Part shown: positions 612-19,435 of the stretch, one piece after another
How positions within the stretch are numbered: position 1 is the stretch's first letter
Layout: the number at the start of each line of letters is the position of its first letter
IMG/VR virus record: IMGVR_UViG_2737471824_000003
Reading direction: 5' to 3' (one strand)
Origin: a virus
Taxonomy: Duplodnaviria; Heunggongvirae; Uroviricota; Caudoviricetes
DNA length: 20,534 nucleotides
Made by a program: the position numbers and the translations under genes
Notes under the pieces: model-generated
What the model was told of the DNA's origin: nothing
What the model saw: only the letters and a program-made list of their open reading frames with translations
Database searches by the model: none

Positions 612-1280
612 ATGGTGAAATTAATGAAAAAAAACACAGATGATGGGGCTAAAATTTACACACCACTTACCCTAAAGCTTTATGACTGGTGGGTTTTGGG
701 AGTATCAAATTGGCTTGCATGGGGATGTCCTACAAAGGAACACCTTCTTCCACACTTTCTGGAACATTTAGGTAACAACCATCTGGATATTGGTGTTGGA
801 ACTGGGTTTTACCTTACTCACGTACCTGAGAGTAGTCTGATATCTTTAATGGATTTGAACGAAGCTAGCCTGAACGCGGCATCTACAAGGGCTGGGGAAT
901 CAAAAATTAAACATAAAATTAGCCATGATGTTTTTGAACCTTATCCCGCGGCGTTACATGGTCAATTTGATTCCATTTCCATGTTTTACCTTCTTCACTG
1001 CCTGCCTGGAAATATAACTACAAAAAGCTGTGTAATACGCAATGCGGCGCAGGCCTTAACTGACGATGGAACTCTATACGGAGCCACAATTCTTGGCGAT
1101 GGAGTTGTGCACAATAGCTTCGGTCAAAAACTGATGCGCATTTACAATCAGAAAGGCATCTTTTCAAACACAAAAGATTCCGAAGAAGGCTTAACACATA
1201 TACTCTCAGAGCATTTCGAGAATGTTAAAACCAAGGTTCAAGGTACTGTAGTAATGTTTTCCGCTTCAGGGAAAAAATAG
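612..1280 (+). CDS. class I SAM-dependent methyltransferase, 222 aa (possible start at ATG 624); AT-rich moron
   Basis: Motif I LDIGVGTGFYL (hh-D-h-GxGxG) followed by an acidic beta-2 end (LMDLNE), i.e. a Rossmann-fold MTase. No DPPY/NPPY or PCQ motif, so not an obvious DNA MTase. Markedly AT-rich relative to the flanking tfa/stf, opposite strand to the tail genes, and bracketed by the duplicated tfa 3' segment and hairpins. Confidence 0.8.
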   Translation: MVKLMKKNTDDGAKIYTPLTLKLYDWWVLGVSNWLAWGCPTKEHLLPHFLEHLGNNHLDIGVGTGFYLTHVPESSLISLMDLNEASLNAASTRAGESKIKHKISHDVFEPYPAALHGQFDSISMFYLLHCLPGNITTKSCVIRNAAQALTDDGTLYGATILGDGVVHNSFGQKLMRIYNQKGIFSNTKDSEEGLTHILSEHFENVKTKVQGTVVMFSASGKK

Positions 1281-1285
1281 CATCC

Positions 1286-1500
1286 AACCGCAGCACGTTC
1301 TTGCTTAAGACGTGCTGCGGCATAATCCCAATGATTACTCCCTGACAGAGTTCGTAGGCCACTCAATATCAGGTGCAGTTGATGTATCAACACGGTTCAG
1401 CAACACCCGATACTTTTTCCAGGCTTCCAGCAATGAGGTTTCTTCCTCCGTTGCAATTTCCAGATCTGCAGCATCCTGAAGCGGCGCAATATGCTCACTG
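1286..1500. repeat. direct repeat copy B (3' end of intact tfa plus terminator hairpin)
   Basis: Partner of 236-451. Confidence 0.75.
1288..1320 (-). terminator. stem-loop downstream of tfa (11-bp perfect stem, 11-nt loop)
   Basis: ccgcagcacgt/acgtgctgcgg perfect inverted repeat immediately 3' of the tfa stop on the minus strand and 3' of the MTase stop on the plus strand. The T-tract is weak, so possibly bidirectional or Rho-assisted. Confidence 0.45.
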
Positions 1501-1919
1501 GCTACCTGCATCAGGTTGTTTTTTGTTTCTTCCGCCTCCCGGATCCGGAACAGTTTTTCTGCTTCCGTATCCTTCACCCAGGCTGTGCCGTTCCACTTCT
1601 GAAACTCCCCTTCCGGCGATAACCAGGTAACATTTTCCGGTAACGGACCGAGTTCAGAAATAAATAACTCGTCCCCTGACGCTACGTCATAAACCGTTTT
1701 CCCCCGATGGTCTTCAACGAGATGCCACGATGCCTCATCACTGTTGAAAACAGCCACAAAGCCAGCAGCAATATCTGGTGGTGCAATATCGGTACTGTTT
1801 GCTGGCAGACCTGTATGAGGCGGAATATATGCGTCACCTTCACCAATAAATTCATTAGTTCCGGCCAGCAGATTATAAATTTTTATGGTCCGTGCTTGTT
1901 CACTCATTCTGAATGCCAT
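1335..1919 (-). CDS. tfa: tail fiber assembly protein Tfa (194 aa)
   Basis: Near-identical from N to C terminus to the lambda Tfa as I recall it ([49 protein letters not shown]...), same length. The ATG overlaps the stf stop (TAATG). Confidence 0.95.
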
Positions 1920-6766: not shown

Positions 6767-7228
6767 CTATCTGCACTGCTCATTAATATACTTCTGGGTT
6801 CCTTCCAGTTGTTTTTGCATAGTGATCAGCCTCTCTCTGAGGGTGAAATAATCCCGTTCAGCGGTGTCTGCCAGTCGGGGGCTGGTTGCATTATCCACGC
6901 CGGAGGCGGTGGTGGCTTCACGCACTGACTGACAGACTGCTTTGATGTGCAACCGACGACGACCAGCGGCAACATCAGCGCGCAGAGTTTCATTTTCAGC
7001 TTTCGCATTGGCTAATTCTCTCGAGTACTTTGCATCGAGTGCAGCAACATCACGCTGACGCTGCTGCATGTCAGCGATGGTGGCGATCGACTGCTTCAGC
7101 TCACTGACTTTTTTATCACGCTGTTCTTTGTAGGCGATGGCGTTATCACGGTAATGATTGACCGCCCACGACAGGCAGACGATGATGCAGATAACCAAAG
7201 CATAAATAATCGCGGCGACTCTGCTCAC
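6767..7228 (-). CDS. rz: i-spanin Rz (153 aa from GTG 7228; track ORF extends to TTG 7243)
   Basis: Matches lambda Rz (..[34 protein letters not shown]...[63 protein letters not shown]). The GTG start overlaps the endolysin stop (GTGA). Confidence 0.9.
6826..7008 (-). CDS. rz1: o-spanin Rz1 lipoprotein (60 aa), embedded in the +1 frame of Rz
   Basis: [55 protein letters not shown]: lipobox plus proline-rich core as in lambda Rz1; nested inside Rz. Confidence 0.9.
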
Positions 7229-7758
7229 TGCTCTATCCCCCAACAGGCTAATGCGCTTTCCTGGTCACGACGAATAACCTGTCCATAGCAGTTATTTGAA
7301 CGTATGCGGCAATCGCGCCCACCATCTTTTATCCACCAGCGAATCGCCTCGCATGCGCCCTTACGATCACCGGCATTCAGCCGCTTATAAAACGTCGACG
7401 GGAAACACTTACCGGGGCCAATGTTATAGGGACAGAATGACGCTATACCCGCTTTTTGTGGTTCGGTCAGTAGTACTTTAATATTGCGCTCCACCCATGC
7501 CAGCGCCTTATCACGCTCAATGGCGTTGACCTGGTCGCATTTTTCCTTCGACAGTTTCATACCGGGAAAAACGGGTTTTCCATCCACTATCGTGGCACCC
7601 CGACAGATGGTCCAGATGCCGGACCCATCGCGGTATGCCGTTGTGTGGTTACCTTCTTTTTCATCCAGAAACTGGTCGAGAATATCAGGCGCGGGCGCAC
7701 CGACGGCAATCAGTGCCAGAACGGCAGCCGACAGGCCGTATCTGATTTTTGCGTTCAT
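7225..7758 (-). CDS. R: SAR endolysin (phage lysozyme, P21 R-like), 177 aa
   Basis: N-terminal signal-anchor-release segment ([18 protein letters not shown]) followed by the T4-lysozyme-like catalytic triad context (E..D..T: [22 protein letters not shown]). Directly followed by Rz/Rz1. Confidence 0.9.
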
Positions 7759-8176: not shown

Positions 8177-8392
8177 TTACTCTCCCCGTGCCGCCTTACG
8201 ACGGTCCTCTCTGATTTTGAAATACAGGTTAGTCAGATATGTCAGCAGCCCAAACAGCAGACTCCCCAGCACGCCTATTGCCGCCCACTGAGACGGGGAA
8301 ACCCTGTCCAGCAACTGCAGGAACCAGTAGCCCGTTCCCACCGCTGACGTGGTGTATGACACACCTGTTGTGATTTTTTCCATCTGGTCCAT
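8177..8392 (-). CDS. S: pinholin (phage 21 S21-like) with dual-start motif, 71/68 aa
   Basis: [71 protein letters not shown] closely resembles P21 S21. Two Met codons three codons apart (8392 and 8383), as in holin/antiholin pairs. The track ORF (to 8497) is over-extended upstream. Confidence 0.85.
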
Positions 8393-8699
8393 ACCCCGTC
8401 TCCCGTTATCCGGAAGCTGACAACAATAAAAAAGCCACCAGTTAACTACTGATGGCTCTGATAACTCATGCAAGCGTCTCAGACGATCCACTGACACTAC
8501 CGGTGAGTTTAACGATACCTTCCATTTGACTGGCTCACTTTTTATGATGATGCCGGTGTATTTATCTCCAGCACCAGACTTTCTATCTCAACGCCATACG
8601 TTGCATTTTTGGTAATATCCGTCAGCGTCAGTGCATTTAGTCCCACTGCCAGACCGTCTTTTATGGCCTGGAATGCCGGGCCAGTACGATGACGTAGTA

Positions 8700-8888
8700 T
8701 CACTCCGGCTCAGTTGCACCACTGACCACCACATCACCTTCTGCTGCAATCGCCTGCATCAGGGTATAAGGGGTTATGGCCACCGGACTACCAAACGGCT
8801 GCCAGCCCTCTTTCAGTTTATGTGTCAGCTTTTCCGCAAGATCTGACGGCGCCGCCGCCCTGACAACATCATAGTGTTTAAATGCCAT
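8700..8888 (-). CDS. DUF1737-like small protein (62 aa)
   Basis: MAFKHYDVVRAA.PSDLAEKL...KEGWQPFGSPV... pattern recalled from DUF1737 proteins that often sit near lambdoid lysis genes. Start taken at ATG 8888. Confidence 0.5.
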   Translation of the reverse strand: MAFKHYDVVRAAAPSDLAEKLTHKLKEGWQPFGSPVAITPYTLMQAIAAEGDVVVSGATEPE

Positions 8889-9148
8889 GGTTCTTTCCAC
8901 CATCTGAAAAATAATTCTTTAAAATACCTGACATGTAATACAGAAAAAACACAAAACCATACCTTAAATAAAAACTTGATTATCAAGCAGATATGCATGG
9001 ATAAACTACAAGACGAGATATAAACCACCCTGCATTTAAATAAACAATAAACAACATCAGAAAAATAATTCTGCTCTATGGTTTACATTCAAAAATATCA
9101 TTTATACTTTTCAGAACATCACCAGCAAGGCATAAACAAGGAAACTAA

Positions 9149-9484
9149 ATGAAGTGGATTGTGATTGATACAGTTATCCAGCCATCATGCGGAATATCTT
9201 TTTCAGTCATATGGAGTAAAGTAAAATTAATAATCTGGTATCAATCGGATGCTTTCTTACCTCCTGAAAGTATATTTACACTGACTCACACAGGTATCAT
9301 GCTCAATAACAAAGTGCTACCTGTAACCATTTACAACGTAGTACCATTCAATAAAACATTCTGGAATTTAATCAAAAACAGCCAGGAATGCCCTACAAAT
9401 ACAGATAACGTATTGAATGAATGCTTTAATAACCGTTGCATTCTGCAAATATGTCCTTATGGACTAAAACAACAAAGTCCATAA
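9149..9484 (+). CDS. hypothetical protein, 111 aa, AT-rich cargo gene with rare-codon bias
   Basis: ATG preceded by AAGGA (caaggaaactaaATG). Six Cys. Five AUA (rare Ile) codons among 111. On the strand opposite to the late operon, inside the AT-rich island between the tRNAs and the lysis genes. No recognisable family. Confidence 0.45.
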
Positions 9485-9518
9485 GGAGTTTACTCACATC
9501 TGACAAAATCAATATAAA

Positions 9519-9540
9519 CAGCCCCTCCGGAGAGGGGCTG
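9519..9540 (-). terminator. Rho-independent terminator (9-bp perfect stem, 4-nt loop, T-rich tail on minus strand)
   Basis: cagcccctc-cgga-gaggggctg. On the minus strand it is followed by TTTATATTGATTTT. Sits between the convergent cargo ORFs. Confidence 0.5.
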
Positions 9541-9931
9541 GAGAGTGGCGCTATGTGCCATTGCATGGTGCCGGGTGCCTCCCGGTGAATTCAGTACCAG
9601 CACCTGAATCCGCGATTATCCCATATACCTACTCGCTGATTGCCCCTCCGCACAGGGGGATTCACCATGCCAGTTTCTTTTAACAAACTCCCCGCAAACC
9701 AGACAACAGTCAACCGCCTGAATTGTGAAGTATTTAAAAATTTCTCCCGCTAACTGATACCCGGCTAACAGTCTGGCGTTTTCTTTTTCAGCAACGGGAA
9801 AGCAACAACCACCACACCCGCCACCAGCACACTGTCAGCCAGCACTGACATTATCCGGCTGCTGCAATGCCATTCACAAAAACAGTAAGCAATCACTTTT
9901 TACCGTAACAGGTGATAATCCAGATATGTAT

Positions 9932-10285
9932 CTACCCCAGATGAGTAATCCGAAGTTCATCCATACCACAGGTCCTGGCTATTCTGTTGTACTCCTGAAC
10001 AAGAGCAAATAATTCTGAATTAGCAACCATGAACTCATCGCAAACCCTCTGTATAGCATCACTATTCAGAATAATAACGTCTCTTCCCGAAAGACGATCA
10101 GGAGCACAGAACAAAACTGTCAAACGGCTGAAGGCCTTTGCTCGTGCTGCATTGACTATATCAATACGCTGCCTAAGGATGAAACACCCCGACGCCTCAT
10201 CAATATTCACTCTACCCACACCATATGAATGATAAATATTTAATGCTGAAAAAACCATTAGACCGTATAACAAACACTCAATCAA
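9932..10285 (-). CDS. hypothetical protein (117 aa from TTG 10285; first ATG at 10258 gives 108 aa); possibly degenerate
   Basis: Only long ORF in this part of the island, with protein-like composition (..VLFCAPDRLSGRDVIILNSDAIQRVCDEFMVANSELFALVQEYNRIAR..). Neither candidate start has a convincing SD. No family recognised. Confidence 0.35.
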   Translation of the reverse strand: MIECLLYGLMVFSALNIYHSYGVGRVNIDEASGCFILRQRIDIVNAARAKAFSRLTVLFCAPDRLSGRDVIILNSDAIQRVCDEFMVANSELFALVQEYNRIARTCGMDELRITHLG

Positions 10286-10311
10286 TACTTAACAGAACTT
10301 TTATTTTTGAC

Positions 10312-10326
10312 AAACATATTATGTTT
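10312..10326. promoter_or_regulatory. 15-bp perfect palindrome AAACATATTATGTTT (candidate operator) in the promoter region of the 9932-10285 ORF
   Basis: Arms aaacata/tatgttt verified by reverse complement. Embedded in a longer imperfect dyad (ttgacaaacatattatgttttcaa) between the tRNA-Arg gene and the ORF. Confidence 0.35.
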
Positions 10327-10395
10327 TCAACAATATCCTGAGCCAGGTATATTCCAGTATAAGGCTCTGCCGGAAGGAATCTGGAAGAATGAATA

Positions 10396-10472
10396 TGGCG
10401 CGCTGTACTGGATTCGAACCAGTGACCGATTGCTTAGAAGGCAATTGCTCTGTCCGGCTGAGCTAACAACGC
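10396..10472 (-). tRNA. tRNA-Arg (anticodon UCU), 77 nt including CCA
   Basis: Reverse complement folds as a cloverleaf: acceptor GCGTTGT/ACAGCGC (one G-U pair), D-stem GCTC/GAGC, anticodon stem ATTGC/GCAAT with loop CTTCTAA, T-arm ACTGG-TTCGAAT-CCAGT, 3' GCCA. Differs from chromosomal argU as recalled, so phage-encoded. Confidence 0.9.
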
Positions 10473-10572
10473 TGAATACCGATAATGGACCGCCATCGGG
10501 GACCCGCCCCCGCACCAACAACCCTGTTATCGTGTCGTCTGCTCTTCCTGATAAGCTAATGGCGGTTTGTGA

Positions 10573-10648
10573 TGGTGGCCCTTGCTGGATTTGAACCAGC
10601 GACCTGGCGATTATGAGTCGCTCGCTCTCACCACTGAGCTAAAGGGCC
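10573..10648 (-). tRNA. tRNA-Ile2 (anticodon CAU, lysidine type; ileX/ileZ-like), 76 nt including CCA
   Basis: Reverse complement GGCCCTTTAGCTCAGTGGTGAGAGCGAGCGACTCATAATCGCCAGGTCGCTGGTTCAAATCCAGCAAGGGCCACCA: perfect 7-bp acceptor stem, anticodon loop CTCATAA, T-loop TTCAAAT. Very close to E. coli ileX as recalled. An initiator or elongator Met identity is not excluded from sequence alone. Confidence 0.85.
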
Positions 10649-10687
10649 GGGAGCAGAATAATAACGGTCCGTAATTAATTCCGCAAT

Positions 10688-10711
10688 AAAAAACCCGCTC
10701 GGCGGCGGGTT
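10688..10711 (-). terminator. candidate tR' terminator downstream of Q
   Basis: On the minus strand: aacccgc-(loop)-gcgggtt followed by TTTTTT, about 50-80 nt downstream of the candidate late promoter and upstream of the tRNAs. Confidence 0.5.
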
Positions 10712-10758: not shown

Positions 10759-10786
10759 AATTTACCACAGATTCCGGAAAAATCAA
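10759..10786 (-). promoter_or_regulatory. candidate late promoter pR' (qut region)
   Basis: On the minus strand: TTGATT (-35), 16-nt spacer, TG-n-TAAATT (extended -10), immediately 3' of the Q stop as in lambdoid late regions. Confidence 0.4.
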
Positions 10787-10791
10787 CCTTG

Positions 10792-11613
10792 TTACCTAGT
10801 TACCTTTTTTAACTGCCGCTCAGCCCATGCTTCTTCAATATCAAACCGGGTCACCAGCGCATCATAGAATTTCTTAACTGTTTTTTCCCATGACGCGCGT
10901 GTTATCTGGTTTGTCACCTCGCATATAGCATTAAATGCCTCCGTTGATGGTAGTCTTTCATAGCCACGACCACCACAACGCTGGCAGTCTCTGATAACAG
11001 GCATACCACGTTTTACCGACTCTTCACGGTGAATGGCGACACCACGCCCACGGCAATCCTTACAGGCGGTGGAAACCTCACCCTTTCCGCCACACTCCGG
11101 ACAGGCAACTTTTACCACCTCCCTGACTTTTTTCCATTCTTCCCAGTAAGACGGATACACACCTTTCGTACACTTTGCCCATACCGGCGGCTTACCATCC
11201 GGATACTGGACCTTGTTTGTAAAAACTATGCTTTCAATAAATTTTTCCCCATAGCAACAAGGGCACTGCTTTTTACTCGCTGCGCTGCGGGCATAATCCT
11301 CAAAAGCATACGAAGCCATAATGCGCATCACTACCGGTTTTATTTCTGCCGGAAGTTTTCTCAACGCCGCCACACGATCGCACCGACTGAGTGCATAATC
11401 TGCCAGTAATTCTGTTGCCCGCGCCCTGTCATTCATACTGATGCCCATTTTCCCCAGGAACGCAGAAAAACCCATCTCAGCCCGATTCTGTGTCATGCCC
11501 TGCGCGGCCATCACATCAGTGATACTCAGCGCATCTTTTGACGTTGAGGCCGATGCATCGGTCAGGCCAGGGGATTTTGGGGAGTAGTATTTCGGTAAAT
11601 CTTCCAGTTTCAT
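10792..11613 (-). CDS. Q: late-gene antiterminator Q (Phage_antitermQ-type), 273 aa
   Basis: N-terminus MKLEDLPKYYSPKSP... and multiple CxxC zinc motifs (CPCCYG, CPECGGKGE, CKDCRGRG, CQRCGGRG). Positioned immediately upstream of the promoter/terminator/tRNA/lysis block and downstream of rusA. Confidence 0.75.
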   Translation of the reverse strand: MKLEDLPKYYSPKSPGLTDASASTSKDALSITDVMAAQGMTQNRAEMGFSAFLGKMGISMNDRARATELLADYALSRCDRVAALRKLPAEIKPVVMRIMASYAFEDYARSAASKKQCPCCYGEKFIESIVFTNKVQYPDGKPPVWAKCTKGVYPSYWEEWKKVREVVKVACPECGGKGEVSTACKDCRGRGVAIHREESVKRGMPVIRDCQRCGGRGYERLPSTEAFNAICEVTNQITRASWEKTVKKFYDALVTRFDIEEAWAERQLKKVTR

Positions 11614-13490: not shown

Positions 13491-13646
13491 TTACTCCTCA
13501 GGTTCGTAAGCTGTGAAGACAGCGACCTCCGTCTGGCCGGTTCGGATTCGTACCTCGCAGAGGTCTTTCCTCGTTACCAGTGCCGTCACTATGACGGTTA
13601 AACAGATGACGATCAGGGCGATTAACATCGCCTTTTGCTGCTTCAT
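13491..13646 (-). CDS. hokD: Hok/Gef-family type I toxin (HokD/RelF-like), 51 aa
   Basis: Translates to MKQQKAMLIALIVICLTVIVTALVTRKDLCEVRIRTGQTEVAVFTAYEPEE, a canonical Hok (TM helix plus conserved Cys, C-terminal periplasmic tail). Below the ORF-track size cutoff. Confidence 0.9.
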   Translation of the reverse strand: MKQQKAMLIALIVICLTVIVTALVTRKDLCEVRIRTGQTEVAVFTAYEPEE

Positions 13647-13904
13647 AGCCTGCTTCTCCTTGACCTTTCGGTCCGTAAGAGGCTAATCTCTATGTGTCGC
13701 ATAGATATGGCCTCAGATTAATGTTAAGCGTCTTGCAGGACGCGTAATGTTAACTGGGGCTTTTCTCTATCTGCCTTTTGGTGTTCATGCCTGAGACAGA
13801 TAGCCTCAAGCACCCGCAGTAATTCTACTTAACTAAGATTTCCCCGCAAACCGTTTTTGTCCGGCACAGTAAATATCCAACTAAACCAATGGCGTTCGCT
13901 GTAT

Positions 13905-19382: not shown

Positions 19383-19435
19383 TTTCTGGTGACGTTTGGC
19401 GGTATCAGTTTTACTCCGTGACTGCTCTGCCGCCC
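19383..19435 (+). ncRNA. dicF: DicF small RNA (antisense regulator of ftsZ and other targets), 53 nt
   Basis: Sequence TTTCTGGTGACGTTTGGCGGTATCAGTTTTACTCCGTGACTGCTCTGCCGCCC followed by a T-tract. Matches K-12 DicF as recalled; located between ydfC and dicB. Confidence 0.8.

Follow-up and report, generated by a model that had tools for sequence, protein, structure and literature searches.

The window analyzed here, i.e., the whole 20,534-nucleotide stretch of the IMG/VR virus record IMGVR_UViG_2737471824_000003 (Caudoviricetes), is a degraded lambdoid prophage adjoining an ompW fragment and the yciE/yciF genes. Its central part (positions 9149-10648) carries a cassette of two tRNA genes, for tRNA-Ile2 (anticodon CAU) and tRNA-Arg (UCU), placed between a Q antiterminator gene and the lysis genes, and an adjacent open reading frame (ORF) on the opposite strand, identified as iraL. 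An initial annotation of this DNA had proposed that the tRNAs serve the expression of neighboring AT-rich cargo genes, namely this ORF and a methyltransferase gene located elsewhere in the prophage. The following features of the cassette, its surroundings and the two cargo genes were distinguished:

10792-11613, minus strand: gene for the Q antiterminator, immediately preceding the tRNA cassette (Pfam PF03589 Antiterm, E=6e-55; annotated by PGAP as antitermination protein).
10759-10786, minus strand: late-promoter-like (pR'-like) element, TTGATT, 16-nt spacer, TAAATT, read from the sequence; just after the Q stop codon.
10692-10711, minus strand: hairpin and T run resembling an intrinsic terminator (tR'-like), with a 7-pair stem including five GC pairs and the tail TTTTATTGCG; between Q and the tRNA-Ile gene.
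10658-10686, minus strand: candidate sigma-70 promoter of the tRNA cluster, TTGCGG, 17-nt spacer, TATTAT (motif match and conservation).
10573-10648, minus strand: tRNA-Ile2 gene, anticodon CAT, ileZ-like (ARAGORN, cat; Rfam tRNA model, 72.5 bits; tRNA-Ile in PGAP).
10486-10566, minus strand: decayed homologue of argN, tRNA-Arg(UCG) (alignment to argN of a Stx2 phage, minimum free energy fold, allele survey).
10396-10472, minus strand: tRNA-Arg(UCU) gene, argO-like, reading AGA and AGG (ARAGORN, tct; Rfam tRNA model, 68 bits).
9149-9484, plus strand: iraL, encoding an RssB anti-adaptor paralogous to IraM, in antisense orientation to both the tRNAs and the late operon (NCBIfam NF007393; 162 bits, cut-off 121).
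612-1280, plus strand: moron encoding a class I S-adenosylmethionine-dependent methyltransferase, at the tail-fibre end of the prophage (Pfam methyltransferase domains; 4 ATA, 1 AGG and no AGA codons).

Both tRNA genes are intact, with encoded CCA ends, and were called by ARAGORN as well as by Rfam, so the initial annotation, which had named tRNA prediction tools as its check, was right in regarding them as real. The gene with the CAT anticodon agrees with K-12 ileX at 68 and with ileY at 70 of 76 positions, the core of the anticodon stem-loop being identical; this match, the pairs C4-G69 and C5-G68 and the encoded CCA end together assign it to the Ile2 (AUA-reading) type. Sequence determinants were compared here, which we take to be those that mark a CAU tRNA for TilS. 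The tRNA-Arg gene agrees with K-12 argU at only 57 of 77 positions and has the same anticodon loop, CTTCTAA. The anticodons and anticodon loops of ileX/ileY and argU are thus shared by the window tRNAs, but the K-12 genes are chromosomal, whereas those of the window are extra, prophage-borne copies. Both tRNAs are 100% identical to those of the isolated phage mEp460_ev081. In the tRNA-Arg(UCU) of the Stx2 phage phi346 (locus L002, 2716-2792) one position of the anticodon loop is G instead of A (CTTCTGA, versus CTTCTAA in the window and argU).

The host codon usage was estimated from 36 K-12 genes (13,141 codons), in which ATA, AGA and AGG occur 2.8, 0.7 and 0.5 times per 1000 codons, respectively (AGA+AGG, 1.1). 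The claim that the two tRNAs decode the rarest codons of E. coli holds in this sample for AGG and AGA, the two rarest sense codons, while ATA comes only fourth, after CGA.

The spacer between the two genes (10473-10572) aligns over its whole length with tRNA-Arg(TCG), the middle gene of the Ile-Arg-Arg cluster located upstream of stx2 in phage phi346. In this argN relic, acceptor stem, D arm, T stem and CCA are preserved, but a 7-bp stem capped by a 3-nt loop stands in place of the anticodon arm, and the T loop reads GCGGGT, as against TTCGAGT in intact argN; the minimum free energy fold of the relic is still cloverleaf-like. Neither ARAGORN nor Rfam, even at E<=10, found a tRNA in 10473-10572, the sole Rfam hit being a meaningless match to a long non-coding RNA. 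A cryptic functional third tRNA, considered as an explanation of the spacer, was therefore rejected. The initial annotation had reported no third cloverleaf in this segment, which stands insofar as no tool calls a tRNA there, and needs correction insofar as an argN homologue with a cloverleaf-like fold is present.

The state of the middle gene was followed in 124 IMG/VR loci sharing the 3' half of the tRNA-Ile of the window. The order Ile-Arg(TCG)-Arg(TCT) was found in 60 of them and Ile-Arg(TCT) in 33. Among the latter, 29 have the same relic allele as the window, with length variants of a poly-G tract and an uncompensated stem change, while a different relic, with an 80-nt deletion, occurs in 3 loci, and intermediate forms are found elsewhere (e.g., L053 and L088). 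These alleles show at least two independent decay events of argN, in loci where the decoders of AUA and AGA/AGG remained intact, which fits selection acting specifically on these decoders. The rate of change in the relic and in tRNA-Arg did not differ clearly across 26 loci (0.014 versus 0.017 edits per nt per locus); a first, alignment-based comparison was spoiled by structurally different loci, and no claim of a faster decay of the relic is made. The kind of change does differ: poly-G slippage and an uncompensated change in the relic, paired T-stem changes, which preserve the helix, in a variant tRNA-Arg allele. In about 17 of the 124 loci (within L007-L126, e.g., L024; also H90 and H187 in E. 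coli genomes) the same tRNA-Ile2 is followed by Lys(TTT)-Thr(TGT)-Gly(TCC). Rarer combinations behind it are Lys-Arg and Arg(CCG)-Gly, so the tRNA slot is modular.

The cluster resembles ileZ-argN-argO of Stx2/933W-type phages in position (downstream of Q, upstream of accessory and lysis genes) and in order, with 86.9% nucleotide sequence identity over 300 nt including the spacer. In both cases tRNA-Ile2(CAU) comes first and tRNA-Arg(UCU) last, TTG-N17-TATTAT lies upstream, and in the window the genes are on the strand of the late transcript. One difference lies in the second gene of the cluster, a tRNA-Arg gene: argN is functional in the Stx2/933W-type cluster, whereas in the window, with the anticodon arm and T loop destroyed, the middle position is occupied by a non-decoding cloverleaf relic. 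Three tRNAs have been described in Stx2 phages and two in phiP27 (PMC4631060). Two closer relatives were also compared. Phage mEp460_ev081 is 100% identical to the window over Q, the terminator, both tRNAs and the relic, and 99.85% identical from window position 10900 down to 9562; at about 9562 it diverges and has other genes in place of iraL. The prophage of the potB island of strain CFT073 is of the same type, has its genes in the same order all the way between dicB and the terminal methyltransferase gene, and is 98% identical across window positions 8401-10690. It differs in having an intact argN (i.e., three tRNAs), an IS200 element between Q and the tRNAs, and complete head and tail genes, most of which are deleted from the window.

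Two routes of transcription of the cassette can be proposed. The candidate sigma-70 promoter ends 9 nt before the 5' end of the tRNA-Ile gene, with a GC-rich stretch in between, and is the single match to TTG-N20-TATTAT in the window (0.25 expected). Of 38 distinct upstream variants, 34 have preserved TTG and TATTAT; the variants, with 15 different spacers among them, stem from at least four unrelated upstream contexts. Such conservation of the hexamers across unrelated contexts, with the spacer free to vary, suggests that the tRNA cluster is transcribed autonomously, as a unit of its own. A parallel with the promoter geometry upstream of K-12 ileX was considered and dropped, as the spacing does not match. 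Further upstream, the late-promoter-like element and the terminator-like hairpin that follows it resemble the pR'-tR' arrangement of lambda; the element itself is similar to lambda pR' (-10 TAAATT), and the consensus promoter scan did not flag 10759-10786. In the CFT073 prophage (locus L127, 16700-17158), the IS200 element is situated exactly between the post-Q terminator and the promoter-like motif of the tRNAs.

Taken together, the locus is best read, with a probability that we put at roughly 0.6, as a standard rare-codon tRNA cassette of the ileZ-argN-argO type with a decayed middle tRNA, residing in the accessory slot between Q and the lysis genes and supplying scarce decoders in general to phage genes and AT-rich acquired genes, with iraL as a separate element. 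A dedicated promoter of the sigma-70 type (TTGCGG-N17-TATTAT, 9 nt upstream) would drive the cluster and, after induction, Q-modified polymerase would read through the terminator preceding the tRNAs and also transcribe them. With both routes in operation, the tRNAs would be available in the lysogen and late in infection. Host enzymes would mature the transcripts, with lysidine placed by TilS on C34 of tRNA-Ile2 permitting AUA to be read. The extra copies would then make decoders of AUA, AGA and AGG more plentiful for all AT-rich genes, i.e., early, lysis and accessory genes of the phage and other acquired genes.

The codon usage of the phage genes is compatible with such a general role, and to this extent the idea that the tRNAs support AT-rich acquired genes agrees with the established compensation hypothesis for these phage tRNAs (PMC7946995). 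The core genes of the window contain 10.5 ATA and 19.0 AGA+AGG codons per 1000 (29.5 combined), so that AUA is 4-fold and AGA+AGG 17-fold more frequent in the prophage's own genes, which hold most of the cognate codons, than in the host sample. In the larger, intact CFT073 potB prophage, 90 of 105 ATA and 130 of 142 AGA+AGG codons likewise belong to the phage's own genes. There, early genes (ATA 9.7, AGA+AGG 17.1 per 1000) exceed late genes (7.1 and 8.9, respectively), and the lysis cassette and several early genes reach 32-85 per 1000 for the three codons combined, the values for the lysis-cassette genes alone being 32-80. The cassette and the idea of a rare-codon role for it are part of what is established for Stx and other lambdoid prophages, and iraL has been characterized before; of minor interest for phage genomicists are the repeated decay of argN, the conserved promoter-like motif and the alternative Lys-Thr-Gly cassettes.

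Several points weigh against this reading. The structural genes of the CFT073 prophage largely avoid ATA, AGA and AGG (the major capsid protein gene contains none), so that bulk virion synthesis does not require the tRNAs. Codon adaptation in lambdoid phages carrying these tRNAs is neither better nor worse than in those lacking them (PMC4631060), which weakens any strong adaptive claim. The proposed promoter and the read-through both derive from the sequence alone, and a literature search for expression data on prophage tRNAs yielded nothing usable. Finally, most head and tail genes are gone from the window, and with them much of the phage-side demand, so that the tRNAs may now be neutral or serve only the host.

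The last point leads to a neutral passenger, i.e., a cassette of no present function in a degraded prophage, which would persist because it is young or hitch-hikes in a recombination-prone mosaic joint and would eventually decay as argN did. Besides the loss of most structural genes, the poly-G length variation and uncompensated stem change of the already decayed middle tRNA speak for it, as do variants with further losses (e.g., tRNA-Ile only) and the position of the cassette between mosaic breakpoints. Neutrality accords less well with the intactness of both remaining tRNAs and their complete identity to those of an isolated phage, with the helix-preserving T-stem changes of the variant tRNA-Arg allele, and with promoter hexamers that are conserved while the spacers vary. 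Moreover, of 5,426 complete E. coli genomes, 3,061 (56%) contain the cassette, at 7,597 places in total and in up to 13 copies per genome. On balance, we regard a mere passenger as rather unlikely.

The specific proposal of the initial annotation, that the tRNAs enable the adjacent AT-rich cargo (iraL and the methyltransferase gene) and are co-adapted with it as ileZ-argN-argO is with stx, has to be judged against what is known of iraL. The protein encoded in the window belongs by sequence to the IraM/IraL family of RssB anti-adaptors, being identical at 110 of 111 residues to the product of the CFT073 potB-prophage gene and 63% identical to K-12 IraM. CFT073 iraL encodes an RssB anti-adaptor that stabilizes sigma-S in log phase (Hryckowian et al., 2014; PMC4045071), and binding of RssB and stabilization of sigma-S, shown for the CFT073 protein (PMC4045071), are predicted for the IraL of the window, which differs at one residue in 111. 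The gene has its own mapped transcription start, and a plasmid carrying only iraL (from -100 relative to this start through the coding region), with no tRNA gene aboard, raised sigma-S in K-12 (PMC4045071). Activity of the clone in K-12 and an antisense, self-promoted gene argue against dependence on the cassette.

The codon counts are partly in favor of such a partnership. Five ATA codons among the 111 of iraL had been reported and were counted again here, and the estimate of about tenfold above the E. coli average is fair (45 per 1000 versus 2.8 in the K-12 sample). This exceeds the core genes of the window (Fisher p=0.008, uncorrected), although 2 core ORFs are denser in ATA and 6 ORFs in the combined count. 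In the CFT073 prophage, morons contain 18.0 ATA codons per 1000 versus 7.9 in other genes (odds ratio 2.3, p=0.005). The A subunit of Stx2 of the reference phage, the model for the proposed pairing, is itself rich in the three codons (15 ATA, 6 AGA and 2 AGG in 319 codons), and the probable autonomous promoter would provide the tRNAs in lysogens.

The match does not extend to arginine. With no AGA or AGG, iraL matches only one of the two tRNAs. The methyltransferase gene, for which several AUA and AGG codons had been noted, does contain 4 ATA but a single AGG and no AGA; it is located some 9 kb off, at the opposite end of the prophage. In iss all three codons are absent. For the clear cargo of the window (the methyltransferase gene, iss, iraL and hokD), the values per 1000 are 20.8 ATA and 4.2 AGA+AGG, or about 25 combined. 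The expectation that rare codons are more frequent in cargo than in the other prophage genes is thus weakly borne out for ATA in iraL, and fails for AGA+AGG and for the combined count (about 25 versus 29.5). In CFT073, too, the difference in AGA+AGG between morons and other genes is not significant (14.4 versus 11.5 per 1000).

Base composition accounts for what remains. Among the 33 short ORFs of the window GC content and rare-codon density are not correlated, and the relation is seen only in the larger intact CFT073 prophage, when counted within Ile and Arg codons. In a binomial regression on that prophage, gene GC explains the ATA share of Ile codons (p=3e-4) and the AGR share of Arg codons (p=7e-13), while moron status adds nothing beyond GC (p=0.75 and 0.59, respectively). 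In iraL itself, 38% of the Ile codons are ATA, and third-position composition predicts 43%; K-12 iraM has as many as 8 ATA in 107 codons. The codon match of iraL therefore looks like a by-product of AT-richness and not a special partnership.

Nor are the two elements consistently linked. In favor of a link, about 28 of the 124 sampled loci have iraL at a distance of 0.4-3.2 kb from the cassette. The number of tRNAs beside it varies, however (three, two or one), as does the distance, the orientation being antisense throughout, and most cassettes are without iraL. In a prophage with a different Q gene (L130) there is no tRNA within 4 kb of iraL, and in another locus (L129) tRNA-Ile is the only one. 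Across E. coli genomes, iraL was found at 1,605 places in 1,446 genomes; the cassette is about 5 times more frequent, with many other neighbors, and the full arrangement of the window is present in 863 genomes. This varied linkage indicates that both occupy the same accessory-gene slot and do not form a unit. A co-adapted pair is accordingly improbable, and the specific interpretation is supported at best weakly: AT-richness and a shared slot explain the apparent match of tRNAs and neighbor, and adjacency does not amount to co-adaptation unless base composition has been corrected for. Under the general-supply reading, iraL would be at most one AUA user among many, a separate, antisense and self-promoted gene placed in the same slot by chance.

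We also consider it improbable that the cassette acts in counter-defence or as a back-up, the phage copies replacing tRNAs depleted by anticodon nucleases of the host or of competitors, or by host shut-off, with tRNA content reflecting an arms race. Polymorphism behind the same tRNA-Ile2 (Arg(TCG)-Arg(TCT), Arg(TCT) alone or Lys(TTT)-Thr(TGT)-Gly(TCC)) would suit such a role, since tRNA-Lys(UUU) is an anticodon nuclease target and tRNA-Arg is cleaved by colicin D, and so would the single anticodon-loop difference between the Arg(UCU) of the Stx2 phage and that of the window. However, the window tRNA-Arg has exactly the argU anticodon loop and the tRNA-Ile the anticodon stem-loop of ileX, and these host-identical loops give no sign of escape mutation. 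We know of no nuclease that targets tRNA-Ile2, and precisely the decoders of the scarcest codons have been retained, which is what the supply hypothesis would predict. It is very improbable that the argN relic owes its retention to a role as a tRNA-like element for processing or spacing, or as the source of a small RNA (sRNA), in a self-promoted tRNA operon whose cassette turnover (Arg-Arg, relic-Arg, Lys-Thr-Gly) reflects an arms race with tRNA-targeting defences and not codon supply.

The remaining part of the prophage has a recognizable lambdoid order, with most genes on the minus strand and most head and tail genes missing. The early region comprises dicB/ydfABC, a cI/cro-like pair, a replication gene, hokD/sok, DUF968 and RusA genes, followed by Q. 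Next in order are the two tRNAs, some small accessory genes and the genes for lysis (holin, 8177-8392; lysozyme, 7225-7758; Rz), and beyond these iss/bor, terminase and lom fragments, a tail fibre gene and the terminal methyltransferase gene. The closest genome match, a chromosomal stretch of E. coli WP2-S18-ESBL-08, is 99.9% identical to the window save for an IS2 element (L001, 16069-17297), which lies in the early region of that prophage and is without a counterpart in the window. Three further features were distinguished between the tRNAs and iraL:

9932-10258, minus strand: putative coding ORF of 108 codons, unannotated by PGAP, directly downstream of the tRNAs and on the same strand (phrog_2873, E=2e-69).
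9765-9896, minus strand: small DUF3927 gene (Pfam PF13064, E=6e-26; phrog_1470, a TciB-like PHROG family).
9510-9699, minus strand: element resembling an STnc100-family sRNA (Rfam RF02076; 132 bits, gathering score 47), with a strong terminator hairpin at its end (9519-9540).

The ORF at 9932-10258 contains 3 ATA, 3 AGA and 3 AGG codons, the second-highest combined density in the window, and a homology search returned solely near-identical E. coli and Shigella sequences, none with an assigned function. The STnc100-like element is positioned between iraL and the DUF3927 gene, and a recurrent mosaic breakpoint lies inside it, near 9562, where mEp460 and many E. coli prophages part from the window exactly. 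Where the Stx2 phage carries stxAB and nanS-p as cargo, the window has the phrog_2873 ORF, the DUF3927 gene, the STnc100-like element and antisense iraL. On the other side of iraL (8542-8903, minus strand) lie a DUF1737 fragment and a 53-codon ORF with 4 ATA among its 5 Ile codons, the latter matching the C-terminal end of phrog_143 (634 positions). The two look like N- and C-terminal remnants of one large gene, which, by synteny with NanS downstream of stx in the Stx2 phage, might at a guess have been nanS-p-like.

At the tail-fibre end, fragments of tail-fibre-assembly (tfa) genes at 236-451 and 1286-1500 form direct repeats (88% identical) flanking the methyltransferase gene, as they do in CFT073; the arrangement suggests that the gene entered the tfa region as a cassette, by insertion or by exchange. 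Rfam further identified IS009 (225 bits) inside a tail-fibre-assembly gene (1378-1576, minus strand), sok beside hokD (13644-13815, minus strand) and DicF upstream of dicB (19384-19435, plus strand).

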